Virus record (IMG/VR): IMGVR_UViG_2531839666_000012
DNA: 37,013 bases
Reading direction: 5' to 3' (one strand)
Source: a virus
Lineage: Duplodnaviria > Heunggongvirae > Uroviricota > Caudoviricetes
Within the stretch, counting starts at the first letter, position 1; each line of letters begins with the position of its first letter. The translations under genes and the position numbers were made by a program. Of the stretch, positions 9,234 to 36,700 are shown one piece after another. The notes under the pieces were generated by a model. It was not told the DNA's origin. It saw only the letters and a program-made list of their open reading frames with translations, and made no database searches.

Positions 9234-9309
9234 GCATGCGCAAGGGACCATCGGTGTGTGCCGGTGGTCTTTATATTGTTGTGAGCTTCCGGATTGCGGG
9301 AGACGGGGT

Positions 9310-9526
9310 ATGTACCAGATGGAAAAAAGTCACAACAGGTGTGTCATACACCACGTCAGCGGTGGGAACGGGCTACTGGTTCCTGCAGTTGCTGGACAGG
9401 GTTTCCCCGTCTCAGTGGGCGGCAATAGGCGTGCTGGGGAGTCTGCTGTTTGGTCTGCTGACGTACCTGACGAACCTGTATTTCAAGATTAAAGAAGACC
9501 GTCGTAAGGCGGCGCGGGGAGAGTAG
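9310..9526 (+). CDS. S: Phage 21 S-type pinholin (class II holin), frame-disrupted at an A6 run as sequenced
   Basis: C-terminal 60 aa ([51 protein letters not shown]) match recalled S21; dual-start ATGs at 9310 and 9319 (MYQMEK) are in the +1 frame relative to the body and join it only if the A6 run 9323-9328 is A5; the track ORF 9236-9526 is the same body with a non-homologous N-terminal extension. Confidence 0.7.
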
Positions 9527-9529
9527 ACG

Positions 9530-10171
9530 ATGAACCATGAAGAAATGAATCAGCGCTTCAGTCGTCTGGAAAATGAAATTGCTGAACTGAATAAAAAACT
9601 GTCGGTGCTGATGCCTTCTGAAGATGCAAACAAACGCTGCGATGAGCAGTTTGCGGCGTTTTACGATGATTGCATCAAAATTGCTCGCAGGACCTTTGCG
9701 AAGATTTTGCAGGAAAAGTTTTTACCGGCCGCATTGTCAGAAAAGTACTCCATTACGGTTAAAAGTGCCGGAGAGGAAGGCAATAAGCGTTATTTTATTG
9801 CGTCTGCACCGGATAAAGACCAGGAATGGGAGTGTAACCGGCCATCCTTTGTTGTATCCGGTGATGACGGGAAAATCACCATATCAGAAAATGGAAAAGT
9901 AACACCGCCATCGCACCAGCACAGTGAGACGCTCATTGAATTTGCCATTGATTACCTGAAGAACAATAAAAAACAGGGGCTGATGAAGCGCATTGGTCGC
10001 TGCATGGGATATCTGCAGCTGGCGGCAGAGATTGAAGCACTTGCCAGTGGTGCAGACAGGGATGCTGCGGTGCGGGAGGGTCTTCTTTGTGATTTCAATA
10101 CGCCACCCTTTAAGAAAGAGCCTGATGGCTGGATCCAGCCGGGGCTGACTTATCTCAAATGGCGCATATAG
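9530..10171 (+). CDS. Hypothetical protein (213 aa) inserted between holin and endolysin
   Basis: SD GGGAG upstream of ATG 9530; predicted N-terminal coiled coil; lower GC than flanking lysis genes; no family recognised. Confidence 0.6.
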   Translation: MNHEEMNQRFSRLENEIAELNKKLSVLMPSEDANKRCDEQFAAFYDDCIKIARRTFAKILQEKFLPAALSEKYSITVKSAGEEGNKRYFIASAPDKDQEWECNRPSFVVSGDDGKITISENGKVTPPSHQHSETLIEFAIDYLKNNKKQGLMKRIGRCMGYLQLAAEIEALASGADRDAAVREGLLCDFNTPPFKKEPDGWIQPGLTYLKWRI

Positions 10172-10198
10172 TAAAAGAGAAAACAATTGAGGTGAAAA

Positions 10199-10426
10199 AT
10201 GAAAAAATACGATATGACAGTTAAATCATTCCACATGGGGGATAAAAATGTTGTCGTTGTCCTTGGTATATATAATTATCAGGTTCCATCAATGCTGTTG
10301 TTCAATATTGAAATAGATATTGAACGACGGGAAGATGCTACCATTCCGTTTTATGAGGCGCTGGCTTTAAAAAAAGCAGCCTCGCTAATTCATGAAATTT
10401 CTGATGATTTAGCAGTGGCTGCTTAG
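10199..10426 (+). CDS. Hypothetical protein (75 aa)
   Basis: SD GAGGTG 6 nt upstream of ATG 10199; AT-rich; no family recognised. Confidence 0.5.
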   Translation: MKKYDMTVKSFHMGDKNVVVVLGIYNYQVPSMLLFNIEIDIERREDATIPFYEALALKKAASLIHEISDDLAVAA

Positions 10427-10430
10427 ATTT

Positions 10431-10718
10431 TTATTTCAAAAATGGCTCAGGACTGGTATTGCCAAACATGGGTCTTACCGGTGGTTGCATGAGGGTATTG
10501 ATGGCGACTTTAATCTCTGGTTTACCTGAGGTTGTGATTTTGCTCAGTTCGCTATGTAACCTGGTTTTAAGCTCATCACTGAATTTCTTGTCTCCACTTT
10601 GCTGATCCAGAATGTCAACGATGTTGTAGAACAGGAAATTGGCTGCGGTATTTATAGCTATGTTTTCGCGCTGAAGCCCCTGAATTAGTTGAAAAAGTTC
10701 ATGGTTTGATATTTCCAT
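10431..10718 (-). CDS. Hypothetical protein (95 aa), convergent with the two preceding genes
   Basis: Minus-strand ATG at 10718 with SD AAGGAG 7 nt upstream (plus-strand CTCCTT at 10725-10730); track ORF extends to 10781 but has no RBS there. Confidence 0.5.
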   Translation of the reverse strand: MEISNHELFQLIQGLQRENIAINTAANFLFYNIVDILDQQSGDKKFSDELKTRLHSELSKITTSGKPEIKVAINTLMQPPVRPMFGNTSPEPFLK

Positions 10719-10842
10719 TAAGTTCTCCTTATTGAGGTTATCAGCCATCCCTCTTTTGTTACATGTGCCAGTGCCCACCACTGGCAGGCTGAAGACTTAA
10801 CATATCCAGGGATTCGGAACCGATAAATCCTGATAAATATCC

Positions 10843-11376: not shown

Positions 11377-11465
11377 GCAGAATATTTTGCTGAAAAATGA
11401 CGTTGACTAACGCGGACGGATAACACGAAATCCTGCGAACTGGCAAAACCTAAGTGAATAAAAGT

Positions 11466-11500
11466 AAAAACCCCGTTTGTTGGCAGCAAGCGGGGTTTTG
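11466..11500. terminator. Bidirectional rho-independent terminator
   Basis: Stem CCCCGtttg/caagCGGGG flanked by an A5 run upstream and T4 downstream. Confidence 0.45.
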
Positions 11501-11731
11501 TGTTTCTGACCTTGGATAAGGCAAGGGAGAACATGGAAAAGTATAAACGAATTCTGTTGAGGTTGACTATGAAAAACGGCCTTGAACTGAAAGCGCCAGA
11601 GTAACTGATGACATCAGCAGAGCGCTGGCTTTTGCTATTAAGTGGGTGGCGGTTGGTATCGCTGTGTCTCCGATACTGTATGGGCTGGCAAAACTGGTCA
11701 TTGCGTTGAAATCGTGAAGGGAGGATTAAGC

Positions 11732-11863: not shown

Positions 11864-11870
11864 CAGAAAC

Positions 11871-12806
11871 ATGAAATGTGTACTGTATTCCGGTGACTGT
11901 CTTGATGTTATGCCTTCATTACTACCGGGAAGTGTTGACCTGGTTTTATGTGACCCGCCGTATGGAACCATTAAAGGGCTTACACTCCGTACATGGGATA
12001 AGAGTACGACAGCATGGGACGATGCCTTAAATCCTGAAGATATTTTCACACAGTGCGAACGACTGCTGAGGGTGGGCGGTGTGCTGGTCATGTTCAGCCA
12101 GGAGCCGCATACAAGCACGATGATTACTCTGGCGGATAAAAACCTGCCGTTTTTATATCGTATGGTGTGGAAGAAGGAGCATTTCCCCAACCCGCTTTCA
12201 GTAAAAAAAGCACCTGTATCTTTATTCGAGGATATCGTTGTTTTCCGGAAAAAATATGACAGTGAGAAAAACCACCCGCTGAGGGAGTACGCCCGAAATA
12301 TCCTTTCTTTCATTGGCCACAGGACAGACAAGGAAGTTAACAAAACACTGGGGCACCGTCGGGCAGAGCATTTTTTTTGCGTGAACACACTCCAGTTTTC
12401 CCTCTGCTCACAGGATACGTATAACGAGTTAATTAAACGCTTTGGTATCGACCGTATGCCGGGTTTCATGACATATGAAGAAATGCGCAAAGTGAATTCC
12501 GGTTACGGCACTGTGGTTTTTAATCTCCCTCAGGGGAAAAAATACCGCGCAAATATTCTGGAGTACGCGCGGGAGCGGGAGCGATGGCATCCGACCCAGA
12601 AGCCAGTTGCATTACTGGAAGAGCTGATTCAGACGTACAGCAACCCTGGCGACAGGGTACTGGATTTTACTATGGGGAGTGGTTCAACAGGTGTTGCATG
12701 TATCCGGACGGGGAGACGGTTTACCGGAATAGAAAAGGATGACCGGTATTTCGCTGTTGCAAAAAAACGTCTGGAAAAAGAAAACAGTGAAATGGTGGTG
12801 ATATGA
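11871..12806 (+). CDS. DNA methyltransferase, N6_N4_Mtase (beta-class) family, inserted between R and Rz
   Basis: Motif [10 protein letters not shown] near the N-terminus and motif [10 protein letters not shown] near the C-terminus. Confidence 0.8.
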
Positions 12807-13270: not shown

Positions 13271-13293
13271 TATTTTTGTTATCCGGAGAATGC

Positions 13294-14189: not shown

Positions 14190-14320
14190 TTATTTCATCA
14201 GAAATTAATTATCACTCTGTTGTTATTCTGTACATCCCGGCTGGGTAAGTCTTGTTCCGCCGGGTATGAAGATGAAATATTGTTGGAGGACAGTGGGTAC
14301 CTGCTCCTGTAACCGAACGT

Positions 14321-14521
14321 TCATTTCTCGTTATTTGTCATGCTGGCCGGGCGCAGGTGCGTTGCATCTGTTGCCAGCCTTCTCCGGCAGGCTTCAATAA
14401 CCCACGCTGAAAAGTTACCGGACCCTTTATGCTCAAGGGCGATGTTGATCTGTTCAATCATGTGATTGGGGAAACGGATATTGCGGGTTGTGGTTCTGCG
14501 GGTCCGGTTTTTCGATGACAT
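14321..14521 (-). CDS. YlcI/YnfO-family (DUF3950) small prophage protein
   Basis: MSSKNRTRRTTTRNIRFPN..IEQINIALE.KGSGNFSAWVIEACRRRL matches recalled DLP12 YlcI / Qin YnfO; minus-strand SD AAGGAA. Confidence 0.6.
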   Translation of the reverse strand: MSSKNRTRRTTTRNIRFPNHMIEQINIALEHKGSGNFSAWVIEACRRRLATDATHLRPASMTNNEK

Positions 14522-14562
14522 ATTTATTTCCTTTACTGATTGCCTTATGACGGGGATTTTAC

Positions 14563-14928
14563 ATGGCTGAGCTTCGTACACTCCAGAGCAGAATCAAAAC
14601 ACTGAATACCCGACGGGTGAATATTCTGAAGGGTGAACAGCGTCGTGTCAGTGGCAGTGCACGTGTTTCCCTCAAGCGTCATATCTGGCTCAGGGATGCC
14701 GGGCAGTGCTGTCTCTGTGGTCGTGTGGTTGACCTCTGTGACAGTGAACTCGATCACCGAATTGCACTTCAGTTCGGTGGTGGTAATGAGGAGACGAATC
14801 TCTGGACGCTCTGTACCGAATGCCATCGACAAAAGTCTGCTCGTGAAGCGGCGGGTGGTATGCCGGACCCGACACTGCCGGAGGTGTCCGGAGGTAGTGG
14901 CAGAGCGGACGACATCATCGGACTGTAA
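14563..14928 (+). CDS. HNH endonuclease (packaging-associated)
   Basis: CxxC...DHRIALQFGG..NLWTLCTECH zinc-finger HNH signature; sits directly upstream of the cos region and terminase, as in HK97-like cos phages. Confidence 0.8.
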   Translation: MAELRTLQSRIKTLNTRRVNILKGEQRRVSGSARVSLKRHIWLRDAGQCCLCGRVVDLCDSELDHRIALQFGGGNEETNLWTLCTECHRQKSAREAAGGMPDPTLPEVSGGSGRADDIIGL

Positions 14929-15218
14929 CCCGACCCGGGGGGGGTATCATCCGGCGTAAAAAACGATCGCTCCGGACACCGCGCCCCCTCTCACGCAGAG
15001 AAAAAATTCCCGTTTCAGGTCAGTTAACATGTTAACTGGCTGCACGGGCATTTTTGCAGTTTTTATCTTTATTATTCAGTTTGTTGCGCGGAAAAAATGT
15101 TAACAGGCTTTTTCAGCAAATGTTAACCAGGCAGCAGTTAACATTTGCGGCATGAGACGCCGGGAAAAATGGGCTGAACCATACCCGGCTGAGTGCATTC
15201 TGGACCCTGGAGGAGGCT
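14929..15218. promoter_or_regulatory. Candidate cos / terminase-binding region
   Basis: G8 run at 14937-14944 followed by four GTTAAC-containing repeats (CAGTTAACATGTTAACTGG, AATGTTAACAGG, AATGTTAACCAGG, CAGTTAACATTTG) between HNH and terS. Confidence 0.35.
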
Positions 15219-15755
15219 GTGCTGACAACGCAAAAACGAAAATTTGCGCTGGCGCTCATGTCCGGGAAAAACAAAACAGCGTCAGCCATTGCCGCCGGTT
15301 ATTCGGCGAAGACAGCCAGGGTTAAAGGCTCGCAGCTGGCAAAAGATCCGGAGGTGCTCGCGTTTATAGCCCGTAAGCAGTGCGAGACGGTAGAGGTGGA
15401 TGAGGTTCCTGTTTACCGGCAGAAAAAATCAGAGCAGGAGGATAAACCCCGTCGCCGTGAGGCGGCTGCAATACCACAGCCGGACGAAACAAATCCGGAG
15501 ATGCCACTGCCCGTGGTGATATCTCCTGGTATTGAGTATATGGATGACGGTCTTCCCGATCCGGTGAAAGCGATGGGGCGTCTTCTGGTGGAGAACATTA
15601 ATACCGACCCCAGGCTGGCGCTGGATGTGGCTTATAAGCTGGCACAGTTCACGCACCACAAAAAAGGGGATGCCGGTAAAAAATCGGCAAAAGGTGACGC
15701 GGCGAAAAAAGCGGCTAACCGTTTTGCGGTGCCACCACCCCCCGACTGGTGGTGA
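15219..15755 (+). CDS. Terminase small subunit
   Basis: GTG 15219 with SD AGGAGG 8 nt upstream; N-terminal region resembles P27-family TerS; directly precedes terL. Confidence 0.65.
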   Translation: MLTTQKRKFALALMSGKNKTASAIAAGYSAKTARVKGSQLAKDPEVLAFIARKQCETVEVDEVPVYRQKKSEQEDKPRRREAAAIPQPDETNPEMPLPVVISPGIEYMDDGLPDPVKAMGRLLVENINTDPRLALDVAYKLAQFTHHKKGDAGKKSAKGDAAKKAANRFAVPPPPDWW

Positions 15756-15777
15756 ATAATGATAATGAGGGCAGCGG

Positions 15778-16083
15778 ATGATACCTGTGTGGAGCACGGC
15801 CTGCCCGGACTGGGCAGAGCGCCTGAAAAAGGGGCTGTCGATTATTCCGGCTCCGATTTACCCGGACCAGGCCGCACATGCCCTGGCGATTTTTAAACAA
15901 CTGCGGATTGTGGATGCACCGGGCAGCCCGACGTTCGGGGAGTCCTGTGCACCGTGGGTGTTTGATCTGGTGGCTGCCCTGTTTGGCTCCTACGATGCGC
16001 AGACCGGTGTACGCCATATAAAGGAAGTGTTCATTCTGATACCCAAAAAAACAGCAAGTCCACGCTGGCTGCCGGGATCATGA
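15778..16083 (+). CDS. Terminase large subunit, N-terminal segment (frame broken at an A7 run)
   Basis: Ends ...ILIPKKTASPRWLPGS*; the -1 frame across the A7 run at 16045-16051 reads the Walker A P-loop NSKSTLAAGIMM... and continues into the next ORF. Confidence 0.8.
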   Translation: MIPVWSTACPDWAERLKKGLSIIPAPIYPDQAAHALAIFKQLRIVDAPGSPTFGESCAPWVFDLVAALFGSYDAQTGVRHIKEVFILIPKKTASPRWLPGS

Positions 16084-17438
16084 TGACGGCGCTGTTACTG
16101 AACTGGCGGCAGGCGGCGGGCTACACCATTCTGGCCCCGACCGTGGAGGTGGCGGCTAATGCCTTCAATCCTGCCAGGGATATGGTACGACGGGACGATG
16201 ATCTGGATGACCTCTGTCAGGTGCAGACACATATCCGGACCATCACCCATCGGGTGACGGACACCACCCTGAAGGTGGTGGCAGCCGATCCGAATACGGT
16301 GTCCGGTATCAAGTCCGTGGGGACACTGATTGATGAACTGTGGCTGTTTGGCAAGCAGTACAAAGCGGAGGACATGTTACGTGAAGCCATAGGTGGCCTT
16401 GCCTCCCGCCCGGAAGGGTTTGTGGTGTATACGACCACCCAGTCGAATGAACCGCCCGCCGGGGTGTTCAGACAGAAACTGCAGTACGCCCGGGATGTGC
16501 GCGACGGCAAAATTCATGATCCGCACTTTCTGCCGGTGATATTTGAGCATCCGCCGGAGATGGTGGAGCGCGGTGAGCACCTGCTGATGGAAAACCTCGC
16601 CATGGTCAATCCGAATCTCGGTTATTCGGTGGATGAGGCTTTTCTGTACCGGGAGTACCGTAAAGCCCGGGAGGCTGGTGAGGAAGCATTTCGTGGCTTC
16701 ATGTCAAAACATGCCAATGTGGAAATTGGTCTTGCCCTGCGTTCTGACCGCTGGACGGGTGCGGATTTCTGGGAGCAGCAGGGCAGGCGCGTCAGCCTGG
16801 ACGATATCCTGCAGCGCGCTGATGTGGTGACGGTGGGGATTGACGGCGGGGGCCTGGATGATCTGCTGGGAATGTACGTGATTGGCCGTGACAGGGAAAC
16901 CCGCGAATGGCTGGGCTGGGGCCATGCCTGGGCGCATGAAACCGCGGTGGTCAGACGGAAGAGTGAGGCATCCCGGTTTCAGGATTTTGTGGCCTGTGGA
17001 GACATGACGATTGTCCGTCGGGTCGGGGATGACACGGCGGAAGTGGCGGAGTATGTGCGTCGTATTCATGAGGCTGAGTTACTGGAGCATATCGGTATTG
17101 ACCCGTCAGGTGTGGGGCAGATTCTGGATTCACTGGTGGAAGCCGGGATCCCCGACGGAATTGTTGTGGGGATAAGCCAGGGCTGGAAGCTGGGCGGGGC
17201 CATAAAAACCACCGAGCGCAAACTGGCTGAGGGAGTACTGGTGCATGGTGGTCAGCCACTGATGGCCTGGTGCGTTGGCAATGCCCGGGTGGAGCCGAAA
17301 GGTAACGCCATCCTTATTACCAAACAGGCCAGCGGACGGGGGAAAATTGACCCGCTGATGGCGCTCTTCAATGCGGTATCCCTGATGTCCCTGAATCCGG
17401 AGCCGAAAAAGAAAGAATATGCGGTTTTTTTCATATAA
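16080..17438 (+). CDS. Terminase large subunit, main segment (ATPase remainder plus nuclease domain)
   Basis: 452 aa continuing the upstream ORF once one A is added at 16045-16051; size and position fit a Terminase_1-type TerL. Confidence 0.8.
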   Translation: MMTALLLNWRQAAGYTILAPTVEVAANAFNPARDMVRRDDDLDDLCQVQTHIRTITHRVTDTTLKVVAADPNTVSGIKSVGTLIDELWLFGKQYKAEDMLREAIGGLASRPEGFVVYTTTQSNEPPAGVFRQKLQYARDVRDGKIHDPHFLPVIFEHPPEMVERGEHLLMENLAMVNPNLGYSVDEAFLYREYRKAREAGEEAFRGFMSKHANVEIGLALRSDRWTGADFWEQQGRRVSLDDILQRADVVTVGIDGGGLDDLLGMYVIGRDRETREWLGWGHAWAHETAVVRRKSEASRFQDFVACGDMTIVRRVGDDTAEVAEYVRRIHEAELLEHIGIDPSGVGQILDSLVEAGIPDGIVVGISQGWKLGGAIKTTERKLAEGVLVHGGQPLMAWCVGNARVEPKGNAILITKQASGRGKIDPLMALFNAVSLMSLNPEPKKKEYAVFFI

Positions 17439-17464
17439 CCCTGTTCACCCTGTAACCATCATGG

Positions 17465-17489
17465 ACCGCTGCGGCGGTTTTTTTATTTT
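17465..17489 (+). terminator. Hairpin plus T-run between terL and head genes
   Basis: Stem ACCGC/GCGGT with loop tgcg, followed by TTTTTTTATTTT. Confidence 0.35.
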
Positions 17490-17501
17490 CAGGAGGCTGA
17501 T

Positions 17502-25387: not shown

Positions 25388-28300
25388 ATGGCGACGTTAC
25401 GTGAACTGATTATCAAAATTTCGGCAAATTCACAGTCATTCCAGTCGGAGATCCAGCGGGCGTCCCGTATGGGCAGTGAATATTACCGGACCCTGCAGGA
25501 TGGCGGACGTCAGGCTGCTGCGGCAGCCAGGGAGCAGCGCCGGGCTCTGGCTGAGCTGAACAGCCAGTTGACGGAAATCCGCGCTTCGGCTGTCGGAATG
25601 ACCGGTGCGTTTGCCGGTGCCTTTGCCACCGGACACCTGATTTCGCTGGCGGATGAATGGAGCTCCGTGAATGCCCGTCTGAAACAGGCGTCGCAGTCAT
25701 CGGATGAATTTTCGTCATCACAGAAAGTGCTGATGGATATCAGCCAGCGGACAGGCACCGCATTTTCGGATAATGCGGCTCTGTTTGCCCGTTCGGCTGC
25801 CTCGATGCGTGAATATGGTTACAGTGCTGATGATGTGCTGAAGGTGACGGAGGCCATTTCGACAGGGCTGAAAATTTCCGGTGCCAGTGCGGCAGAGGCG
25901 GGTTCGGTGATCACCCAGTTCAGCCAGGCGCTGGCACAGGGGGTGTTGCGCGGCGAGGAATTTAATTCGGTCAATGAAAGTGGGGACCGGATCATTCGCG
26001 CACTGGCTGCAGGCATGGGCGTGGCCCGTAAGGATCTGAAGACGATGGCGGACGATGGTCAACTGACGGCGGATAAAGTCGTTCCCGCGTTAATCAGCCA
26101 GCTGGGGATATTGCGTGATGAATATGCAGCCATGCCGGAAACGGTGTCTGACGGGATCACGAAGGTGGAAAACGCCTTTATGGCCTGGGTGGGCGGCGCG
26201 AATGAGGCCAGCGGAGCGACGAAAACGCTCTCCGGCGCACTGAACGGTGTGGCCGGAAATATTGATACCGTGGCAACAGCTGCGGGTGTGCTGGTTGCTG
26301 TCGGGGTGGCCCGGTACTTTGGTAATCTGGCTTCCGGAGCGATGTCTGCCACGGCAGGACTTGTGACCGCTGCACGTAATGAAGTGGCACTGGCTGAGGC
26401 CCAGTTAAGGGGAACGCAGATTGCCACGGCGCGGGCAAGGGCAGCCGTGTACCGGGCTCAACAGGCTGTGGCGGCAGCCCGCGGGACTGAGATGCAGATT
26501 GCGGCAGAGGCCCGTCTGGCGGTCACACAGGAACGCCTGAACAGAAATATTGCTGCCAGAACCGCCGCCCAGAATGCGCTGAACAGTACAACGGCGGTGG
26601 GCTCACGTCTGATGAGCGGTGCGCTGGGACTGGTTGGAGGCGTACCCGGACTGGTGATGCTGGGAGCTGCCGCATGGTACACGCTGTACCAGAATCAGGA
26701 ACAGGCCAGGGAGTCTGCGCGCCAGTATGCACTGACGATTGATGAAATCGCGCATAAAACGCCATCAATGTCTCTGCCTGAAGCCTCAGATAATGAAGGG
26801 CGAACACGGGAGGCGCTGACAGAGCAGAACCGGCTGATTGATGAGCAGGCCAGCCGGGTGAAATCCCTGCAGGAAAAAATCGCCGGGTATCAGTATGTGC
26901 TGGCTAATCCGGGCTGGACGACCGGTAACGGCTTTATGATAAACCATCTGACATCGGTGAAAACTGTAACGGAAGAGCTTGCTCAGGCAACAGAGCAGTT
27001 TGCTGTTGAGCAGTCCCGTCTGGCACAGATGCAGGAAAAAGCGCAGTCCATTCAGGATGTGCTTGCCGGACTGGAAGAGCGCCGTGTTGTGTTAATTCGT
27101 CAGCAGGCAGCAGAGCAGAATAAAGCGTATCAGTCACTGCTGGTCATGAACGGTCAGCATACGGAATTCAACCGCCTGCTGGGGCTGGGTAATGAACTGC
27201 TGCAACAGCGTCAGGGACTGGCGAGTGTACCGCTGCGACTGCCACAGGCCACTCTGGATGATAAACAGCAGGGCGCCCTGAATAACACAGAGCGTCAACT
27301 TGCCCTGTCCCGGCTGAAAGGGGAAGAAAAAGAGCGTGCCCGGCTGGGGTATGCGGCGGATGACCTTGGTCTGGTGGGGGATACGTATCAGGAGGCGAGG
27401 CAGCGTTACATCCGTAATTCGATGGAAGCCTGGCGCAACAATGAGGCGAATAAACCCAAATCCCGGGGCGGAAAATCTGAGACGGAAAAAGCGGAAGACA
27501 GTTTTTCCCGTCTGCTGAAGCAGCAGAAGGAACAACTGGCACTGGCAGGGAAGAATACAGAACTGGCGAAGCTGAAGTACCAGACCTCGCAGGGAGAGCT
27601 GAAAACCCTGACGGAGATACAGAAGCAGGAGCTGCTGCGCAATGCTGCCCTGATTGACCAGAAGAAAATCCGGGTGCTGTTACGGGCCCGGGAGGAGACC
27701 CTGAAAAATGATAATGCAGACGCAAGGGCATCAAATGACGCTGAGCTGCTGGGGTACGGGCAGGGTGAGCGGGTCCGTGAACGGATGCGGGAGCTGCAGC
27801 AGATTCGTGACGGCTACCGCCAGAAGGATGCGAACCTGCAGTCCCAGTATCAGACAGGGGATATCAGTGAGGATTTTTACAGACAGGCGCTGGCGCAGAA
27901 TGCGCAGTATCTGAGTGAACGCCTTAAAGACCAGGAGGCTTTTTATGCCGAATCGGATGCGCAGCGTGCTGACTGGCAGAAAGGGCTGCAGGAAGGGCTA
28001 AGTAACTGGGTGGACAGCGCATCAGATTACGCTTCACAGGCAGCACAGCTTGCGACAGACGGTATCTCAGGGATGGTGAATAACATCACGGAGATGCTGA
28101 ACGGAAATAAAGTGGAATGGCGCAGCTGGGCTGCATCAATCCTGCAGGAAATATCAAAAGTTCTTATGAATGTGGCCATTGTCAACGGCATTAAGATGGC
28201 CGCAAACAGTATGTCCGGTGCAGGAGGATTTTTCGGCAGTATAGGCAACTGGCTGGGTGGCGCGGTGGCAAATGCAAAAGGCGGCGTTTATACCTCGGCA

Positions 28301-28630
28301 AACCTGAGTGCATACAGTAACAGTATTGTGGACACGCCCACGTACTTTGCCTTTGCAAAAGGGGCAGGGCTGATGGGGGAAGCCGGACCTGAAGCCATCA
28401 TGCCCCTGACCCGGGCAGCGGATGGTTCACTCGGCGTGCGTGCGGTGGGCAGTATGAACGGCAGTGCGGGTCTGGTGTATTCCCCGGTGTACCACATTGC
28501 CATTCAGAATGACGGCGCTAACGGGCAGATAGGGCCGGAAGCGGTGGGCACCCTTGTGCAACTGATTGACCAGCGGGTACAGGCGGTGATGTTATCCATG
28601 CGTCGTGACGGAGGAATGCTGAGTGGATGA
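25388..28630 (+). CDS. H: Tail tape measure protein (lambda H-like)
   Basis: 1080 aa, Ala/Gln-rich coiled-coil composition; C-terminal region resembles recalled lambda gpH; between G/T and M. Confidence 0.9.
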   Translation: MATLRELIIKISANSQSFQSEIQRASRMGSEYYRTLQDGGRQAAAAAREQRRALAELNSQLTEIRASAVGMTGAFAGAFATGHLISLADEWSSVNARLKQASQSSDEFSSSQKVLMDISQRTGTAFSDNAALFARSAASMREYGYSADDVLKVTEAISTGLKISGASAAEAGSVITQFSQALAQGVLRGEEFNSVNESGDRIIRALAAGMGVARKDLKTMADDGQLTADKVVPALISQLGILRDEYAAMPETVSDGITKVENAFMAWVGGANEASGATKTLSGALNGVAGNIDTVATAAGVLVAVGVARYFGNLASGAMSATAGLVTAARNEVALAEAQLRGTQIATARARAAVYRAQQAVAAARGTEMQIAAEARLAVTQERLNRNIAARTAAQNALNSTTAVGSRLMSGALGLVGGVPGLVMLGAAAWYTLYQNQEQARESARQYALTIDEIAHKTPSMSLPEASDNEGRTREALTEQNRLIDEQASRVKSLQEKIAGYQYVLANPGWTTGNGFMINHLTSVKTVTEELAQATEQFAVEQSRLAQMQEKAQSIQDVLAGLEERRVVLIRQQAAEQNKAYQSLLVMNGQHTEFNRLLGLGNELLQQRQGLASVPLRLPQATLDDKQQGALNNTERQLALSRLKGEEKERARLGYAADDLGLVGDTYQEARQRYIRNSMEAWRNNEANKPKSRGGKSETEKAEDSFSRLLKQQKEQLALAGKNTELAKLKYQTSQGELKTLTEIQKQELLRNAALIDQKKIRVLLRAREETLKNDNADARASNDAELLGYGQGERVRERMRELQQIRDGYRQKDANLQSQYQTGDISEDFYRQALAQNAQYLSERLKDQEAFYAESDAQRADWQKGLQEGLSNWVDSASDYASQAAQLATDGISGMVNNITEMLNGNKVEWRSWAASILQEISKVLMNVAIVNGIKMAANSMSGAGGFFGSIGNWLGGAVANAKGGVYTSANLSAYSNSIVDTPTYFAFAKGAGLMGEAGPEAIMPLTRAADGSLGVRAVGSMNGSAGLVYSPVYHIAIQNDGANGQIGPEAVGTLVQLIDQRVQAVMLSMRRDGGMLSG

Positions 28631-28964
28631 GATTAAGACCCTTCACTGGTGTCCCCGGGAAGGGATGCAGGTGACGGAGAAACCGTCGGTGGTGACGGTG
28701 AAGTTTGGCGACGGTTATCAGCAACGTCGTCCGGCAGGACTGAATGCGCAACTGAAGACCTTTCAGGTGGTTTTTCGGGTGACAACGGATGCTGAGCGGG
28801 AGGCACTGTCCGCGTTTCTGTCATGGCATGGTGGTTACCGGGCTTTTTTGTGGAAGCCCCCGAAACATAACCGGACGGTCAGGGTGGTGTGCCGGGAGTG
28901 GAGTATTACGGATAACGCCCGGTACAGTGATTTCAGTTGCACGATAGAGCAGGTAGTCAGATGA
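28623..28964 (+). CDS. M: Minor tail protein M
   Basis: 113 aa matching recalled lambda gpM (VKFGDGYQQRRPAGLNAQLKT, HGGYRAFLWKPP, EQVV). Confidence 0.85.
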   Translation: MDEIKTLHWCPREGMQVTEKPSVVTVKFGDGYQQRRPAGLNAQLKTFQVVFRVTTDAEREALSAFLSWHGGYRAFLWKPPKHNRTVRVVCREWSITDNARYSDFSCTIEQVVR

Positions 28965-29048
28965 GAATTATCCTATAAATCACTCTTTATTGTTTAGTTG
29001 TTAATTATTTTTAATCTGTCTTGTCAGAAAGTGCGAAATCGATCTTGT

Positions 29049-29068
29049 ATTTACATTTTGTTACATAA
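29049..29068 (+). promoter_or_regulatory. OmpR-box-like element upstream of the porin gene
   Basis: TTTACATTTTGTTACATAAT in an AT-rich leader closely resembles the ompC/ompF OmpR-binding consensus. Confidence 0.4.
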
Positions 29069-29162
29069 TATAAATTGAACTAAGAATTTGTATTAAAATA
29101 TTTTAATTTTTGTTCATGACATCTGAATGCATGAATAGTTCAGTTTAAATAAGGATTAAATC

Positions 29163-30317
29163 ATGAAAAAAACGACAGTGGCACTTTCTGCTGTAGCAGT
29201 GGCAGTGATGTTTGCTGCGGGGGCGCAGGCAGCAGAAGTTTATAATAAAGATGGTAATAAACTGGATCTTTACGGGCGTGTAACCGCTCTGCATTACTTC
29301 TCGGATGATAAAGGTAATGACGGAGACCAGACTTATGCTCGTCTCGGCTTTAAAGGCGAAACGCAGATTAATGATCAACTGACCGGATTTGGTCAGTGGG
29401 AATACCAGTTCTCTGGTAACAAAACGGAATCTGAAGGTTCCGCGGGAAATAAAACCCGTCTGGCATTTGCAGGTCTGAGATTTGCAGATGTTGGTACCAT
29501 TGATTACGGACGTAACTATGGTATTGCTTATGATGTCGGATCATATACTGACGTACTGCCTGAGTTTGGTGGTGATGGCTGGACGCAGACCGATAACTTT
29601 ATGACGGCCCGAACTTCCGGTGTCCTGACTTACCGTAATACAGACTTCTTCGGGCTGGTTGATGGTCTGAATTTTGCGGCGCAGTATCAGGGCAAAAATG
29701 AGCGTGATGACCTTCAGAAGGCTAATGGCGACGGGTATGGTTTCTCGGCCAGCTATGAGTTTGATGGTTTTGGTTTTGTCGCTGCGTATACCAAGTCAGA
29801 TCGTACCGATAAGCAGGTTCAGGGGTTGAATGGTACTGCAGATGTTCTTGATCCTGAATCAGGTAAAAAGGTTGGAGAAAAAACAGTTGACTCAGGTAGT
29901 GTGGCAAAAGGTAAACATGCTGAATTCTGGGGAACTGGTCTTAAATATGATGCCAATAACCTGTATCTGGCAGCAGTGTATTCTGAAACCCAGAATATGA
30001 CGACCTTTGGTGATCAAGGTGTTGCGGATAAAGCTCAGAATATCGAAGCCGTTGTTCAGTATCAGTTTGATTTTGGTCTGCGCCCGTCCCTTGCCTACCT
30101 TCAGTCCCGCGGACAGGATGTTATGGTTGGTGGTGTGAACCATGGCGATCAGGATCTGGTTAAATATATTGATGTCGGTGCGACTTATTACTTTAACAAG
30201 AATATGTCCACCTATGTTGATTATAAAATTAACCTGATTGATGAAAGTGAATTTACCCGGAAAGCCGGTGTTGCGACAGATAATATCGTTGCTGTGGGTA
30301 TGACTTATCAGTTCTGA
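29163..30317 (+). CDS. Outer-membrane general porin, OmpC/OmpF/NmpC/Lc family (phage moron)
   Basis: 384 aa; signal peptide [38 protein letters not shown], the PEFGGD L3-loop signature, and terminal MTYQF. Confidence 0.9.
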
Positions 30318-30490
30318 TTATTGCTGATAAGTTAATAAATACGGGCCGTCTGCCCTTACAGGCGGCCTGTATCAATGAAAACACAGTTTTCATTGGTCAC
30401 TGCGATCAGCAATTGCCATCTGGCATGTGCTGATTTAACTTTCTGTTATTACCTTTATTGGTTTTATTTTAAATTGGACTTTTATTGTTC

Positions 30491-30514
30491 GGGGCGCGTC
30501 TGCGCCCCTTTTTT
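30491..30514 (+). terminator. Strong rho-independent terminator between the porin moron and L
   Basis: Stem GGGGCGC/GCGCCCC with loop gtct, followed by TTTTTT. Confidence 0.55.
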
Positions 30515-30526
30515 ATGGGCGGATAT

Positions 30527-31225
30527 ATGCAGGATATTCACGAAGAAAGCCTGAACGAGTCGGTTAAGTCAGAGCAGTCACCGCGGGTGGTGCTCTGGGA
30601 AATCGACCTGACGGTGCAGGGCGGTGAGCGGTATTTTTTCTGCAATGAGCTGAATGAAAAAGGGGAGCCGGTGACCTGGCAGGGGCGTGAATATCAGGCG
30701 TACCCGATTGAGGGCAGCGGCTTTGAGATGAACGGAAAGGGCAGCAGTGCCCGCCCGTCGCTGACGGTGTCCAATCTTTTCGGGCTGGTCACCGGGATGG
30801 CGGAGGATTTGCAGAGCCTGGTGGGTGCCACGGTGGTCCGTCGCCGGGTGTATGCGCGTTTTCTGGATGCGGTGAATTTTGTGGCAGGCAATCCTGAGGC
30901 AGACCCGGAGCAGGAGCTGACGGACCGGTGGGTGGTGGAGCAGATGTCATCGCTGACGGCCATGACGGCCTCGTTTGTGCTGGCGACACCGACGGAGACG
31001 GACGGTGCGCTGTTTCCCGGTCGCATCATGCTGGCGAACACCTGTATGTGGGATTACCGGGGCGATGAGTGCGGGTATAACGGTCCGGCAGTGGCGGATG
31101 AGTTCGACAACCCCACCACGGATATCCGGAAGGACAGATGCAGTAAATGCATGCGCGGGTGTGAGATGCGCGGCATGGCGGTCAATTTTGGCGGTTTCCT
31201 TTCCATCAATAAACTTTCGCAGTAA
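30527..31225 (+). CDS. L: Minor tail protein L
   Basis: Near-colinear match to recalled lambda gpL (MQDI..E.LNE, VVLWEIDL, GERYFFCNE, RIMLANTC.W.YRGDECGY.GPAVADE, FGGFLSINKLSQ). Confidence 0.9.
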   Translation: MQDIHEESLNESVKSEQSPRVVLWEIDLTVQGGERYFFCNELNEKGEPVTWQGREYQAYPIEGSGFEMNGKGSSARPSLTVSNLFGLVTGMAEDLQSLVGATVVRRRVYARFLDAVNFVAGNPEADPEQELTDRWVVEQMSSLTAMTASFVLATPTETDGALFPGRIMLANTCMWDYRGDECGYNGPAVADEFDNPTTDIRKDRCSKCMRGCEMRGMAVNFGGFLSINKLSQ

Positions 31226-31235
31226 ATCCCGTTTT

Positions 31236-31979
31236 ATGACACAGACTGAATCAGCGATTCTGGTGCATGCCCGGCGGTGTGCGCCAGCGGAGTCGTGCGG
31301 CTTCGTGATAAGCACCCCGGAGGGCGAACGGTACCTGCCCTGCGTGAATATCTCCGCAGAGCCGGAGGCGTATTTTCGTATTGCACCGGAAGACTGGCTG
31401 CAGGCACAGATGCAGGGGGAGATTGTGGCGCTGGTCCACAGTCATCCCGGTGGACTGCCCTGGCTGAGCGAGGCTGACCGGCGGCTGCAGATAAAGAGTG
31501 CCCTGCCCTGGTGGCTGGTCTGCCGGGGTGAAATTCACCGGTTCCGCTGTGTGCCGCACCTGACCGGACGGCGCTTTGAACACGGTGTGACGGACTGTTA
31601 CACCCTGTTCCGGGATGCATACCATCTGGCGGGGATAACGCTGCCGGATTTTGTGCGTGAGGATGACTGGTGGCGCAACGGCCAGAACCTGTACCTGGAC
31701 AACCTGGCGGACAACGGCTTTTACCGGGTGTCTCCGTCCTGTGCACAGGCGGGCGATATCCTGCTGTGCTGCTTTGGCGCATCGGTGCCGAATCATGCCG
31801 CCATTTACTGTGGCAACGGTGAACTGCTTCACCATATACCTGAACAACTGAGTAAACGGGAGAGGTATTCTGAAAAATGGCAACGACGAACGCATTCTGT
31901 CTGGCGTCACCGCCACTGGTCCGCATCTGCCTTCACGGGGATTTACAACGATTTGGTCGCCGCATCAGCCTGTATGTGA
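31236..31979 (+). CDS. K: Tail assembly protein K (MPN/JAB plus NlpC/P60-like)
   Basis: MTQTESAIL.HARRCAPAESCGFV.STPEGERY.PCVNIS, VALVHSHPGGLPWLSEADRRLQ and HGVTDCYTLFRDAYHLAGI match recalled lambda gpK. Confidence 0.9.
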   Translation: MTQTESAILVHARRCAPAESCGFVISTPEGERYLPCVNISAEPEAYFRIAPEDWLQAQMQGEIVALVHSHPGGLPWLSEADRRLQIKSALPWWLVCRGEIHRFRCVPHLTGRRFEHGVTDCYTLFRDAYHLAGITLPDFVREDDWWRNGQNLYLDNLADNGFYRVSPSCAQAGDILLCCFGASVPNHAAIYCGNGELLHHIPEQLSKRERYSEKWQRRTHSVWRHRHWSASAFTGIYNDLVAASACM

Positions 31980-32515
31980 ACACGGCAGCGGAGGCCATCC
32001 GTGCCCTGTCGCTGCAGGTGCCGGGATTCCGCTGTCAGATGAACGAAGGATGGTATCAGATACGCATTGCGGGCAGGGATGTATCTGAACAGGAGCTTCA
32101 TTCCAGAGTATGTGAGCCGTTGAATGACGGGGATGTTATCCATCTGGTGCCCCGGACGGAGGGGGCAAAAAACGGCGGTGTTCTTCAGGTGGTGGCCGGT
32201 GCTGTTCTGGCTGTTGTGGGATATGTGTTCAGCTGGACCGGTATTGGTGCTGTCATCGGTAATCTTGGGGTGGCCATGATGGTGGGGGGTATCACGCAGA
32301 TGCTCACCCCCAGGGCGAAAACACCGTCTGCCACGACAACAGATAATGGTAAACGGAACACGTATTTTTCGTCACTGGACAACATGATTGCCCAGGGTAA
32401 CCCGATGCCGGTGCCTTACGGTGAAATGCTGGTTGGTTCACGACGGATATCCCAGGACATCAGCACCCGTGATGAGGGCGGAGACGGGAAAGTGGTGGTT
32501 ATCGGGCGGGGATAA
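31877..32515 (+). CDS. I: Tail assembly protein I
   Basis: LASP...RICL.GDLQRFGRRI, WYQ.RIAGRDVS, TTDNGK.NTYFSSLDNM.AQGN and GEM.VGSR match recalled lambda gpI. Confidence 0.85.
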   Translation: MATTNAFCLASPPLVRICLHGDLQRFGRRISLYVNTAAEAIRALSLQVPGFRCQMNEGWYQIRIAGRDVSEQELHSRVCEPLNDGDVIHLVPRTEGAKNGGVLQVVAGAVLAVVGYVFSWTGIGAVIGNLGVAMMVGGITQMLTPRAKTPSATTTDNGKRNTYFSSLDNMIAQGNPMPVPYGEMLVGSRRISQDISTRDEGGDGKVVVIGRG

Positions 32516-33190
32516 AAATAAAAAATCCCGCAGAGTTAGTGGAGCTGCGGGAAATAACGATGAAGATTAATGTTATGGAGTTATTTCTTTGGGCAGAAAA
32601 ACATTAACGCAGCGAAATTATAAGCGCTACATGGATTTTGCGAAAATGTGAAGAAATTCAGAAATTTTTTGCTGCAGAGGTGCAGGGAGCTTGCCGGGTA
32701 TCTGTGGCAGAAGACAGAAAACATCATGCCGGGGTTAAGGGATAAAAAAATCCCGCAGAGTTAGCGGAGCTGCGGGACAGAACCGATGAAGATTAACGTT
32801 CAAGGAGTTTTGTTTTTATTGACCCGAAAAAACTGTAACGCCCCGGAATGATATCTGCCATGGGGACGCACAGGAAATGTGAAGAAATTCAGACTTTTTC
32901 TGTCGCAGGTTTACAGAACGGATTACCGCCGGGGTACCAGTGGCGTAAATGAGCCGGATGTTGTGGTGCGGCTGAAGCAAAAAAATCTCCCGTAATATCG
33001 CCGGATACTGACGGGAGACGAATAGTCACCTTAAGGAGGTCTGATAATTATTGCTTTTATTGAGCAAAAAAACTGTAACGCTGCATCATTATAGCGGCTA
33101 CAGGCAATTGCCGGAAATGTGAAGAATTTCAGAAATTTTATTCCGTCATGACACAGGCACCCTCCGGGGTGCCTGTTGTTTTTGGGCATA
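32516..33190. repeat. Three tandem sRNA-like modules between I and J
   Basis: Each module has a minus-strand terminator (hairpins 32527-32551, 32752-32776, 32987-33017, with T-runs on the minus strand), a minus-strand -10 hexamer about 70 bp to the right (TATAAT 32617-32622, TATCAT 32848-32853, TATAAT 33088-33093) and a conserved box GGAAATGTGAAGAAATTCAGAAATTTT; a plus-strand terminator lies at 33154-33183. Confidence 0.55.
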
Positions 33191-33226
33191 AACAGATTCA
33201 GACATCAGACAGGAGAGGGGGACAGA

Positions 33227-33923
33227 GTGGGTAAAGGGGGCGGCAAGGGGGCACACACCGCGTGAGGCGAAGGACAATCTCAAATCCACGCAGATGATGA
33301 GCGTGATTGATGCCATTGGTGAGGGACCGGTGGAAGGTCCGGTGAAGGGACTGCAGAGTATTCTGGTGAACAAAACCCCGCTGACGGACACGGACGGTAA
33401 TCCCGTGATACACGGTGTGACCGCCGTCTGGCGCGCCGGGGAGCAGGAGCAGACACCGCCGGAAGGCTTTGAGTCCTCCGGGGCAGAAACCGCACTGGGC
33501 GTGGAGGTGACGAAGGCAAAGCCGGTGACGCGCACCATCACGTCAGCGAACATTGACCGTCTGCGGGTCACCTTCGGGGTACAGTCACTGGTGGAGACCA
33601 CCTCAAAGGGTGACCGTAATCCCTCTTCTGTCCGCCTGCTGATTCAGCTTGAGTGTAACGGGCACTGGGTGACGGAGAAGGATATCACCATTAACGGCAA
33701 GACCACCTCGCAGTACCTGACGTCTGTGATTCTGAATAATCTCCCTGAGCGCCCCTTTAACATCCGGATGGTCAGGGAGACGGCGGACAGCACCACGGAC
33801 CAGCTGCAGAACAGAACGCTGTGGTCGTCATACACCGAAATCATCGATGTGAAACAGTGCTGCCGAACACGGCCATTGTGGGGCTGCAGGTGGATGCGGA
33901 GCAGTTTGGTGGCCAGCAGCTGA
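33227..33923 (+). pseudogene. J: Tail tip / host specificity protein J, N-terminal part (frame disrupted)
   Basis: GTG 33227 with SD AGGAGA reads MGKGGGKGAHTA* and hits a stop after 12 codons; the J-like frame (HTPREAKDNLKSTQ.MSVIDAI...) is +1 from the G5 run at 33247-33251 and shifts again near 33862. Confidence 0.75.
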
Positions 33924-36700
33924 CGGTGAACTACCATATCCGTGGTCGCATCATTCAGGTGCCGTCAAACTATGACCCGGAAAAACGCACCTACAGCGGT
34001 ATCTGGGACGGGAGTCTGAAACCGGCATACAGCAATAACCCGGCCTGGTGCCTGTGGGACATGCTGACCCACCGCGCTACGGGATGGGAAAACGCCTGGG
34101 GGCCGCGGATGTGGACAAGTGGGCACTGTATGCCATCGGGCAGTACTGCGACCAGACGGTCCCGGATGGTTTCGGGGGGCACAGAGCCGCGGATGACTTT
34201 CAATGCGTACCTGTCACAGCAGCGTAAGGTCTGGGATGTTCTGGGGGATTTCTGCTCGGCGATGCGCTGTATGCCGGTATGGAACGGCCAGACGCTGACG
34301 TTCGTTCAGGACCGCCCGTCGGATGTGGTGTGGCCGTACACCAACAGCGATGTGGTGGTGGATGATAACGGCGTGGGGTTCCGCTACAGCTTCAGTGCCC
34401 TGAAGGACCGGCACACGGCGGTGGAGGTGAATTACACCGACCCGCAGAACGGCTGGCAGACTTCCACGGAACTGGTGGAAGACCCGGACGCCATCCTGCG
34501 CTACGGGCGCAATCTGCTGAAGATGGATGCGTTCGGCTGTACCAGCCGCGGTCAGGCCCACCGTGCCGGACTGTGGGTGATAAAGACAGAACTGCTGGAA
34601 ACGCAGACGGTGGATTTCACGCTCGGGTCACAGGGGCTGCGGCACACGCCCGGTGACATCATTGAAATCTGTGATAACGACTACGCCGGGACCCTGACCG
34701 GCGGACGCATCCTGTCCATGGATGCCGCCAGCCGTACCCTGACGCTGGACCGTGAGGTGACACTGCCGGAAGCAGGGACATCGACGGTGAACCTGATTAA
34801 CGGCAGCGGTAAGCCGGTGCGCGTGGACATCACCGCACACCCCGCCCCGGACCGGATACAGGTCAGCGTCCTGCCGGATGGCGTGGAGACATACGGTGTG
34901 TGGGGACTCTCCCTGCCGTCACTGCGTCGTCGCCTGTTCCGCTGTGTTTCCATCCGGGAAAACACGGACGGCACCTTTGCCATCACGGCAGTGCAGCACG
35001 TACCGGAAAAAGAAGCCATCGTGGATAACGGGGCCACCTTTGAGCCGCTCTCCGGTTCACTGAACAGCGTCATCCCGCCGGCTGTGCAGCACCTCACGGT
35101 GGAGGTGAGTGCCTCAGACGGCCAGTATCTGGCGCTGGCGAAATGGGACACGCCGCGGGTGGTGAAGGGCGTGCGCTTCAGTCTGCGCCTGACCAGCGGA
35201 AACGGTGAAAACAGCCGCCTGGTGACCAGCGCCATCACTGCCGACACGGAGCACCGTTTCAGTGGCCTGCCTCTGGGGGAATACACCCTGACGGTCAGGG
35301 CGATAAACAGCTACGGCCAGCAGGGCGAACCTGCCACCACCGCGTTCCGGATTAATGCGCCTGCAGCACCGGCCAGCATTGAACTGACGCCGGGGTATTA
35401 TCAGATAACAGCAGTACCGGTGCTGGCGGTGTATGACCCGACGGTACAGTTTGAGTTCTGGTTCTCGGAGGCAAAAATCGCAGACACATCTCAGGTGGAA
35501 ACCTCTGCCCGTTATCTGGGGACAGGCAGCCAGTGGAGTGTCTCCGGCCCGCACATTAAGCCGGGGAGGGATTTCTGGTTTTATGTGCGCAGCGTCAACC
35601 TGGTGGGGAAATCTGCGTTTGTGGAAGCCAGTGGCCGGGCGAGCAATGATGCGGAAGGGTATCTGGGGCTGTTTCGGGAAAAGATAGGAAAACTGCATCT
35701 GGCACAGGGGATGTGGGAGCTGATTGATAACAGCCAGCTTGACAATGAGATGGCGGAGATGAAGACCACCATCACCGAAACCCGCAATGAAATCACGCAG
35801 ACGGTCAGTAAAACCCTGGAAGACCAGAGCGCCACCATACAGCAGATACAGCGGGTGCAGACAGACACAAATAACGACCTGGCTGCGCTGTACATGCTGA
35901 AGGTGCAGAAAACAAAAAACGGCATTCCGTATGTTGCCGGTATAGGTGCGGGGATTGAGGATGCTGATGGCCAGCCCCTGAGCAATATACTGCTGCAGGC
36001 GGACCGTATCGCGATGATTAACCCGGAGAACGGCAACACCACGCCGCTGTTTGTGGCGCAGGGGAATCAGCTGTTCATGAACGATGTGTTCCTGAAGCGG
36101 TTGTTTGCAGTGAGCATCACCTCGTCCGGCAATCCCCCGACGTTCTCCCTGACGCCGGACGGCAGGCTGACGGCCCGTAATGCTGATATCAGCGGACATA
36201 TCAGTGCGAACTCGGGCACGCTCAATAATGTGACCATTAACCAGAACTGCCGGATACTTGGAAAACTGTCTGCCAACCAGATTGAAGGCGATATTGTTAA
36301 AACCGTGGGGAAGGCTTTCCCGCGGGACTCCCGCGCACCGGAGCGGTGGCCATCGGGGACCATTACCGTCAGGATTTATGACGATCAGCCTTTTGACCGG
36401 CAAATTGTGATCCCGGCAGTGGCTTTCAGCGGCGCTAAACATGAGAGAGAGCATAACGATATTTATTCATCATGCCGGCTGATGGTGAAATGTAACGGCA
36501 GGGTGCTTTTTGAAAGGACGGCGCTGGCTGAGTCTCAGGTGTATTCAGGGGTGATTGATATGCCTGCAGGAAGGGGGCATATGACGCTGGAGTTTTCTGT
36601 GTCTGCCTGGCTGGTGAATGGATGGTACCCGACAGCGAGTATTAGCGATCTGCTGGTTGTCGTGATGAAGAAGTCCACGGCGGGTATCGGTATTTCGTGA
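33821..36700 (+). CDS. J: Tail tip / host specificity protein J, main body
   Basis: 959 aa colinear with recalled lambda gpJ (e.g. [87 protein letters not shown]); contains one internal out-of-frame segment. Confidence 0.85.

Follow-up and report, generated by a model that had tools for sequence, protein, structure and literature searches.

The stretch of DNA analyzed here in its whole length (the window; 37,013 nucleotides [nt] held in IMG/VR as virus record IMGVR_UViG_2531839666_000012) was recognized from its map of open reading frames (ORFs) and from similarity searches as the late region of an stx-less lambdoid prophage of Escherichia coli. In the sequence as written, genes for lysis, packaging, and adsorption (the holin gene, terS, terL, and the tail tip gene J) are all interrupted, and annotation at face value would describe a prophage that is defective for all three functions. 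The question that the locus raises is whether these breaks are present in the DNA itself, or only in its deposited sequence. The initial annotation had ascribed those that it listed, in the holin gene, terL, and J, to homopolymer errors, with real decay as the alternative. The account that we favor, with moderate confidence, is a mixed one, in which the small insertions and deletions (indels) in the holin gene and J are consensus errors, and the changes at long runs are hot-spot variation of uncertain origin. On this view, the window would faithfully copy a lambdoid prophage that close relatives carry in intact or almost intact form, and the nine short indels of the deposited sequence would have two different origins.

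Short indels relative to closely related prophages

We compared the window with four complete E. coli genomes and ~60 further prophage copies. The closest copies are found in the complete genomes of FHI_NMBU_11, JNEC-KY174, JNEC-KY202, and CFIAFB20190167, to whose prophages the window is 99.7–100% identical (99.7–99.97% for FHI_NMBU_11 and JNEC-KY174), and a stretch of 14.7 kb (16503–31178) aligns with the closest complete relatives with zero mismatches and zero gaps. Relative to these copies the window carries nine short indels, of which seven are coding (one each in the holin gene, terS, and terL, and four in J) and two are intergenic. The genes and changes concerned are as follows.

9310..9526, + strand: class II holin gene with a dual start (MYQM), broken after codon 6 (PF04971)
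9329, + strand: additional G immediately 3′ of the A6 run (9323–9328), whose length is unchanged
14937..14944, + strand: G8 run, non-coding, between the HNH endonuclease gene and terS
15219..15755, + strand: terS, cut to 178 amino acids (aa; intact, 187 aa), with C6 at 15738–15743 versus C7 in the closest allele (L006)
15778..17438, + strand: terL, split into ORFs of 101 aa and 452 aa, with A7 at 16045–16051
32520..32525, + strand: A6 run in a hairpin loop just 3′ of the stop of gene I (32515), where relatives have A7 or A8
33227..36700, + strand: tail tip/host specificity gene J (NCBIfam lambda_TipJ profile), GTG start, broken into three frame segments
33247..33251, + strand: G5 versus G4 (+1) at J codon 8; G4 in 44 of 44 other J genes
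33861..33862, + strand: CTGCCG versus CTACCCG in J, a complex change (−1 plus a substitution) and not a run change; confined to the window among the 41 panel J genes that cover the site
34072..34073, + strand: C2 versus C3 (−1) in J; confined to the window in the J panel
34174..34179, + strand: G6 versus G5 (+1) in J, restoring the frame 103 nt after the preceding break; confined to the window in the J panel

The terS break and the run changes in non-coding DNA (G8 at 14937; A6 at 32520) are additions to the list of the initial annotation, in which the three named breaks were each said to fall exactly at a mononucleotide run. That description fits A7 in terL and G5 in J, but not the G that lies beside the run in the holin gene. 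Run-length changes make up six of the nine indels. No run differs in length at 9329 or at the complex change at 33861, and J has three changes at runs of 3–5 nt. Among all runs in the window, 4 of the 23 with at least seven bases are affected, compared with 1 of 140 five-base and 1 of 425 four-base runs.

As a baseline, a plain count of pairwise gaps was confounded by divergent mosaic patches and was dropped; instead, we counted isolated indels, defined as changes of 1–2 nt with 25 matching bases on either side. The window shows six to seven such indels against each complete relative, whereas the relatives show 0–2 among themselves over 27–43 kb, and its indel load is therefore above chance. 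Private substitutions of the window number ~5 in 36 kb. In mutation-accumulation lines of E. coli, the ratio of indels to substitutions is about 1:10, far below that of the five indels outside hot spots to the ~5 private substitutions of the window.

When the seven coding events were reversed in silico, the products were identical, or nearly so, to those of relatives (holin, 71/71; terS product, 187/187; TerL, 553 aa; J, 1156/1157), which bears out the initial observation that the flanking frames encode contiguous, conserved protein. Because the repaired J and holin match intact proteins so closely, there is no sign of relaxed constraint; a test for it was negative, with one private amino-acid change in 1157 J codons and none in the holin or in terS.

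It is conceivable that the indels are, with few or no exceptions, real and recent mutations, and that the window represents a grounded prophage in early decay, with terS, terL, the holin gene, and J inactivated by slippage or point indels in addition to an insertion sequence (IS) in its esterase gene. Such a prophage would need complementation by co-resident prophages for lysis, packaging, and adsorption. There is precedent, since deletions, frameshifts, and inserted IS elements are found in the Sp prophages of O157 Sakai (Asadulghani et al., 2009; PMC2669165), and lambdoid prophages of enterohemorrhagic E. coli (EHEC) commonly carry frameshifts together with IS insertions (PMC2669165). The window resembles these defective prophages in phage family and host type, in combining an IS with frameshifts in morphogenesis genes, and in that complementation by co-resident prophages is possible. 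The IS in the esterase gene is certainly real, the window is otherwise clean sequence, and its lineage is unsampled, so that private variants would be expected whether or not the breaks exist. However, if the holin and J events were real, five indels outside hot spots would have accumulated in the time of ~5 substitutions, a proportion of indels at least tenfold that found among relatives, and there would be no selection for additional lesions once the first knock-out was present. Inherited defects and drift would also be expected of a defective EHEC prophage, whereas the holin and J lesions of the window are unshared and the genes are otherwise identical to intact ones. Overall, we consider it possible, but doubtful, that all of the indels are real.

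The breaks in the holin gene and J

The native start of the holin gene is the ATG at 9310 (MYQMEK). The initial annotation located the break at the A6 run at 9323–9328, and a frame break is indeed present here, but the run is as long as in intact relatives and the surplus base is the G at 9329. In the window, the holin frame stops at 9492, while the true C-terminal frame runs on to 9526. The intact holin of 71 aa is identical in relatives, its protein is found on at least 1000 contigs, and the best complete-genome matches at the locus differ from the window solely by G 9329. The extra G was present in none of the 10 fetched loci that span the site and in none of 5426 complete genomes, DNA searches did not find it in the GTDB representative genomes or in IMG/VR, and the frameshifted products (96 aa and 60 aa) have no record in the protein collection. 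As a result of the inserted base, an ORF of 96 aa runs from an ATG farther upstream (9236) to 9526 and joins 30 unrelated residues to holin residues 8–71; were the insertion real, a holin with an altered N terminus could still be produced.

In J, the break at the start and the "further breaks" mentioned in the initial annotation were both recovered, the latter as three events (33861–33862, 34072–34073, and 34174–34179). In order, the four indels have the signs +1, −1, −1, and +1, and all lie within 0.93 kb; the 34 codons between the events at 34072 and 34174 remain open in the wrong frame. We scored these sites in a panel of J genes from 44 other sources, 87–99.7% identical to the window, wherever a panel gene covered the site. 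All four indels were absent from every panel gene covering the respective site, and the panel genes kept their frames with a single exception, in FHI_NMBU_11. Private J substitutions of the window are limited to 33654 and the one inside the complex change at 33861. Once repaired, J has 1157 aa and is identical at all but one residue to the J protein of JNEC-KY202, which is itself found on 74 contigs.

Searches of larger collections gave the same picture. None of the J indels was present among the 5426 complete genomes or in the GTDB representatives; in IMG/VR, a 30-mer with G5 had no match, compared with 38 for the G4 form, and the variant at 33861 likewise had none. The frameshifted J products (209 aa, 208 aa, and the ORF at 34061–36700) have no record in the protein collection, and a search that does not depend on start sites did not find the out-of-frame peptide between 34072 and 34174 among 5.8 billion protein clusters. 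The same search returned other J fragments, each on a single contig and with its own local out-of-frame stretch; one-off fragments of this kind have the look of assembly noise, as expected.

The exception in the panel, FHI_NMBU_11 (L002), carries a G4>G5 frameshift of its own in J, at the equivalent of window position 35517, and the gene is annotated as "frameshifted." Single J frameshifts thus occur, or get mis-sequenced, in other finished assemblies too. That a complete genome contains such a change speaks for real lesions in the window. Yet four events in 0.93 kb of a gene whose product otherwise agrees with an intact protein at 1156 of 1157 residues speak against decay, as does the absence of the holin and J lesions from every relative; the terL and terS variants, by contrast, are shared with other assemblies in all combinations.

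The holin and J-5′ segments are each present at three to four places in the closest complete genomes, compared with one place for the capsid and tape-measure segments, which are free of indels. We conclude that the holin and J events fit consensus error better than decay, because indels exceed substitutions and the repaired proteins are identical, or almost so, to intact ones, and because the events are confined to the window, occur at short runs or at no run, and fall in multi-copy segments. For these five events (the G in the holin gene and four in J, at runs of 0–5 bases), the most likely origin would be an error of consensus or base calling in the source assembly, made in DNA that has several diverged copies per genome, and the true holin and J genes are probably intact. 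If so, five of the seven coding lesions are probably absent from the actual DNA.

Errors of this type have precedents. At least as outlined in the accounts of Polypolish (PMC8812927) and Kastor (PMC12007338), indel errors that remain in repeats after polishing are a described problem of bacterial assemblies from long-read or hybrid data; most are changes of homopolymer length, they fragment genes, and they persist chiefly in repeats beyond the reach of short-read polishing. The window is similar to such cases in that single-base indels split conserved genes, six of its nine changes are in run length, the holin G and the four J variants are confined to one assembly, indels exceed substitutions, and the unique indels lie in multi-copy prophage DNA. 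It differs from them in that just 4 of 23 long runs are affected, some changes occur at a very short run or none (the holin G and 33861), and three of its run variants are also found in other assemblies. The initial proposal of homopolymer sequencing error can consequently be retained in part: error is the better reading for the holin gene and J, but not as classical miscalls of long homopolymers, and the terL variant occurs in independent assemblies. The sequencing platform (pyrosequencing, Ion Torrent, or nanopore had been suggested) is not something that can be read from the sequence.

Several observations weigh against error as the source of the holin and J breaks. Error is a reading inferred from the sequence itself. 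The assembly is not noisy overall, given that 19 of 23 runs of at least seven bases agree with relatives and 14.7 kb are flawless, and the IS, present in three copies, is 100% identical to the others; a model of errors in all repeats is weakened by this error-free multi-copy element. Four clustered indels at short runs are unlike the classical profile of homopolymer-length error, and cross-mapping of paralogous J copies would yield substitutions, not frameshifts. That the variants are private counts for less than it may seem, because the lineage of the window is unsampled (its DUF826 E43 variant and its gene I allele are unrecorded). Genuine frameshifts and inserted IS elements are found in lambdoid prophages of EHEC (PMC2669165), and the window has a real IS. 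Finally, the terS and terL variants, which are found in independent assemblies, may well be real in the window too.

A further candidate is mis-assembly, rather than base-level error, in the form of a collapsed or chimeric consensus of paralogous prophage copies. The multi-copy state of the holin and J-5′ segments in related genomes is compatible with it, and the clusters of indels adjoin mosaic segments (14242–16502 and 32071–32338). However, paralogous J and holin copies keep their frame, and mixing them would produce substitutions and not single-base indels; moreover, all but one of the J substitutions of the window are known elsewhere. We also considered that A6 followed by G in the holin gene is a mix of two paralogues (AAAAAATC and AAAAAGTC), but neither the fetched loci nor IMG/VR contained such a paralogue, and a holin paralogue with GAAAAAGTC, which might have given rise to A6 plus G by mixing, was likewise not found in either. 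A chimeric origin of the breaks is, in our estimation, very unlikely.

Length variation at the longest runs

The remaining four indels are G7>G8 upstream of terS, C7>C6 in terS, A8>A7 in the Walker A codons of terL, and A8>A6 downstream of gene I. The initial annotation was correct in placing the terL break in the Walker A region: the run at 16045–16051 is A7 in the window versus A8 in all intact alleles, and it encodes the KKN of IPKKNSKST, which aligns with the Walker A sequence IARKNGKTG of HK97 TerL (PDB ID code 6Z6D).

In contrast to the holin and J events, three of these four variants (G8, C6, and A7) recur in independent assemblies. The exact 101-aa TerL fragment occurs on 9–16 other contigs (NCBI drafts and Logan read-set assemblies), and the exact 178-aa terS product on 5–7, versus at least 1000 contigs for the intact forms of 553 aa and 187 aa, respectively. 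The truncated forms thus represent at most ~1% of the contigs with these alleles. C6 in terS is common to L024, L025, L026, and L028. At the intergenic G run, G6, G7, and G8 are all seen in other assemblies, complete genomes included, with G8 common to L012, L015, and L026, and the A run at 32520 is polymorphic (A6, A7, or A8) among complete genomes.

To follow the combinations, we used a 2.4 kb region (14242–16639) and retained haplotypes with zero mismatches to the window apart from run lengths. The carriers of A7 are L012 and L015 (both G8 C7 A7) and L017 (C7 A7, ending before the G run), and those of C6 are L026 (G8 C6 A8) and L028 (G7 C6 A8). Together with the window and the intact form, all four combinations of C6 or C7 with A7 or A8 are therefore found on one haplotype, which points to homoplasy. 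A different one-base-shorter form, CC+A8, marks a separate background (L010, L011, and L016). L028 (SRR063742) matches the window without a mismatch along 4.86 kb, the sole differences being G7 and A8; it was dropped as an independent check of the same strain, as it is without the window's private variants elsewhere and identity of strain is not demonstrable.

We conclude that the terL, terS, and intergenic tracts are recurrent slippage sites, because other assemblies show exactly these length variants on an identical haplotype, and that the terL and terS breaks cannot be ascribed to this single assembly, because the same variants are present in independent draft and read-set assemblies. The changes at the four longest-run sites would accordingly mark hot spots of polymerase slippage, at each of which the window could carry either a true recent allele or a long-run miscall; what is demonstrated is the recurrence. 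Judging from these comparisons, A7 in terL and C6 in terS may be true slippage alleles. Their presence in several independent assemblies also counts in favor of an all-real view of the lesions, and some shared backgrounds of single-nucleotide polymorphisms (L013/L014/L018 and L010/L011/L016) suggest clonal inheritance; such sharing would argue that at least some of the long-run variants are real. Some carriers of A7 are clearly noisy: in L009 (GCA_051590845.1) and L017 (SRR066813), the capsid, portal, and tail genes are split and further runs have changed in length, and part of the recurrence of terL A7 in public data is likely to be error itself.

The same tracts invite a functional interpretation, in which the breaks are sites of programmed recoding, or in which terL A8 and terS C7 are phase-variable tracts that reversibly turn packaging off, possibly with some rescue by transcriptional slippage. 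Long tracts do lie inside ORFs, A8 is kept in both terL alleles seen, and intact ("ON") and broken ("OFF") lengths of the two tracts vary among near-identical copies, in all combinations on one haplotype. In these respects the tracts are reminiscent of simple-sequence contingency loci. Unlike such loci, they are short and vary at a frequency of ~1%, with no support for a high switching rate or for selection on the tracts; at runs of 7–8 nt, this frequency is the level of neutral slippage or of occasional miscalls. Intact forms outnumber broken ones by at least ~100:1, the breaks are not conserved, and functional phages of the family have an uninterrupted holin gene, terL, and J. A narrower proposal, that the terL A8 and terS C7 tracts are natural slippage switches that repeatedly, and each time independently, turn packaging off, and perhaps on, in a widespread EHEC prophage family, seems to us improbable. 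Were it true, it would provide a fast means of grounding a prophage without loss of its cargo genes, and the window would show one double-OFF state.

Conserved frame changes, the insertion sequence, and neighboring genes

The window also contains frame changes that are natural, as well as the IS mentioned above. These are as follows.

6856..8165, + strand: IS3-family element (orfA/orfB) of 1310 bp in the SASA-esterase (nanS-p-like) gene, with a 3-bp target duplication (CAG)
7228: IS3 orfA/orfB frameshift site at an A6 run, conserved
21007..21015, + strand: conserved junction (A6-TGA) of the portal gene with an ORF rich in repeats, which lies in the −1 frame; same layout in ~90 phage records
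25025..25034, + strand: slippery site A_AAA_AAG TAG at the G/T junction of the tail chaperone genes, a conserved natural −1 frameshift with the same two-ORF layout in relatives

The presence of true programmed sites at A6 runs lends the functional interpretation some credit. In common with programmed −1 frameshifts of the G/T and IS3 orfA-orfB types, of which the window has examples at 25025, 7228, and possibly 21007, a frame change at an A6 run can have conserved protein on both sides. However, these programmed sites are conserved in every relative, whereas the holin, terL, and J breaks are not, and the latter also lack the context of a slippery heptamer; the holin and J sites showed neither a slippery-site nor a stimulator architecture. 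Conservation separates the two groups: the holin gene, terS, and terL are uninterrupted in relatives and on at least 1000 contigs, and just one of the 44 J genes in the panel is broken, so that the holin, terL, and J breaks fail the test that the G/T, IS3, and portal junctions pass. The breaks are neither conserved nor programmed, and a functional role for them is very unlikely.

These comparisons suggest three working rules. A break conserved in all relatives indicates programmed recoding or a natural layout (as for G/T, IS3, and the portal junction); one that recurs at a run of at least seven bases indicates a slippage hot spot, whether real or miscalled; and a unique break at a short run in multi-copy DNA should be suspected of being a consensus error. 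The phenomenon itself is already known, being one of data quality or of ordinary decay, with no new biological mechanism, and the value of the analysis is mainly practical, in the hygiene of annotation.

The portal gene (region 19651–22397) is annotated in RefSeq as "frameshifted" in four of the four closest genomes. It matches the full HK97 portal profile and ends with CTG AAA AAA TGA (21004–21015), and an ORF of 461 aa begins at ATG 21012, in the −1 frame relative to it. The two-frame layout is found in ~90 records of Stx and lambdoid phages, including BP-4795, 1717, and phi330, and read-through is seen in just two (YYZ-2008 and Stx2a_WGPS6). We therefore rejected the RefSeq flag as evidence of a further lesion. 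By comparison with these records the junction is a natural layout, and the A6 run that precedes the stop may be the site of a programmed −1 frameshift. The ORF downstream contains, at 21177–21928, about five tandem repeats of 162 bp (54 aa) that are ~92% alike (DDVRPMLEQMVKEAVSHIPVPRDGRDYDP... units) and have no family match. A comparable case is a small ORF after the lysozyme gene (~11533–11717), which is "frameshifted" in RefSeq in four of four relatives and identical in the window, and is a conserved state rather than a private lesion.

The IS insertion in nanS-p had been called certainly real, and we agree: the 1310-bp element of the IS3 family, with its CAG duplication and inverted ends (TGAATCGCCCCGG.../...CCGGGGCGGTTCA), has copies of 100% identity in FHI_NMBU_11, JNEC-KY174, and JNEC-KY202. 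It is rare, with just seven records at ≥99% identity among the 5426 complete genomes, and since most E. coli copies are 80–90% identical to it, an assignment to IS629 was rejected. Sharing of so rare an element suggests that the host of the window probably belongs to the lineage of these three genomes.

The gene order of the window starts with genes of the Q region, a DNA methyltransferase gene, three tRNA genes, and a second methyltransferase gene at the position of stx in Stx phages. It continues with the SASA-esterase gene, the lysis cassette, the HNH endonuclease gene, terS, terL, a protease-capsid fusion, the portal gene, and head-tail genes, and ends with the tail genes up to J, among which a porin gene of the OmpC family is inserted. 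Features outside the interrupted genes are as follows.

1986–3044, 3360–4355, and 11871–12806: DNA methyltransferase genes (three in the window)
3085–4355 region: three tRNA genes, identified by ARAGORN as Met(CAT), Arg(TCG), and Arg(TCT); in RefSeq, the one with CAT is Ile

The methyltransferase encoded after the tRNA genes, at the site occupied by stx in Stx phages, is S-adenosylmethionine dependent. Exact-product look-ups gave no record for the E43 variant of DUF826 encoded by the window, for the nanS-p::IS fragment, or for its gene I protein (179 aa or 212 aa), and DNA searches of complete E. coli genomes, phage records, the GTDB representatives, and IMG/VR did not recover the source assembly. 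Gene I (31877–32515) has a middle segment (divergent part, 32071–32338) that is 42 nt shorter than in relatives, and the best full-length match in complete genomes for the 1.4-kb stretch around it is just 87% identical; it is a mosaic allele private to the lineage of the window. Its relatives are annotated in RefSeq from an internal GTG, and the lambda-like start is ATG 31877. The porin gene of the OmpC family is full length (29163–30317), lies between the next gene after the tape measure gene and gene L, and is kept in the closest prophages; it is likely to be lysogenic-conversion cargo.

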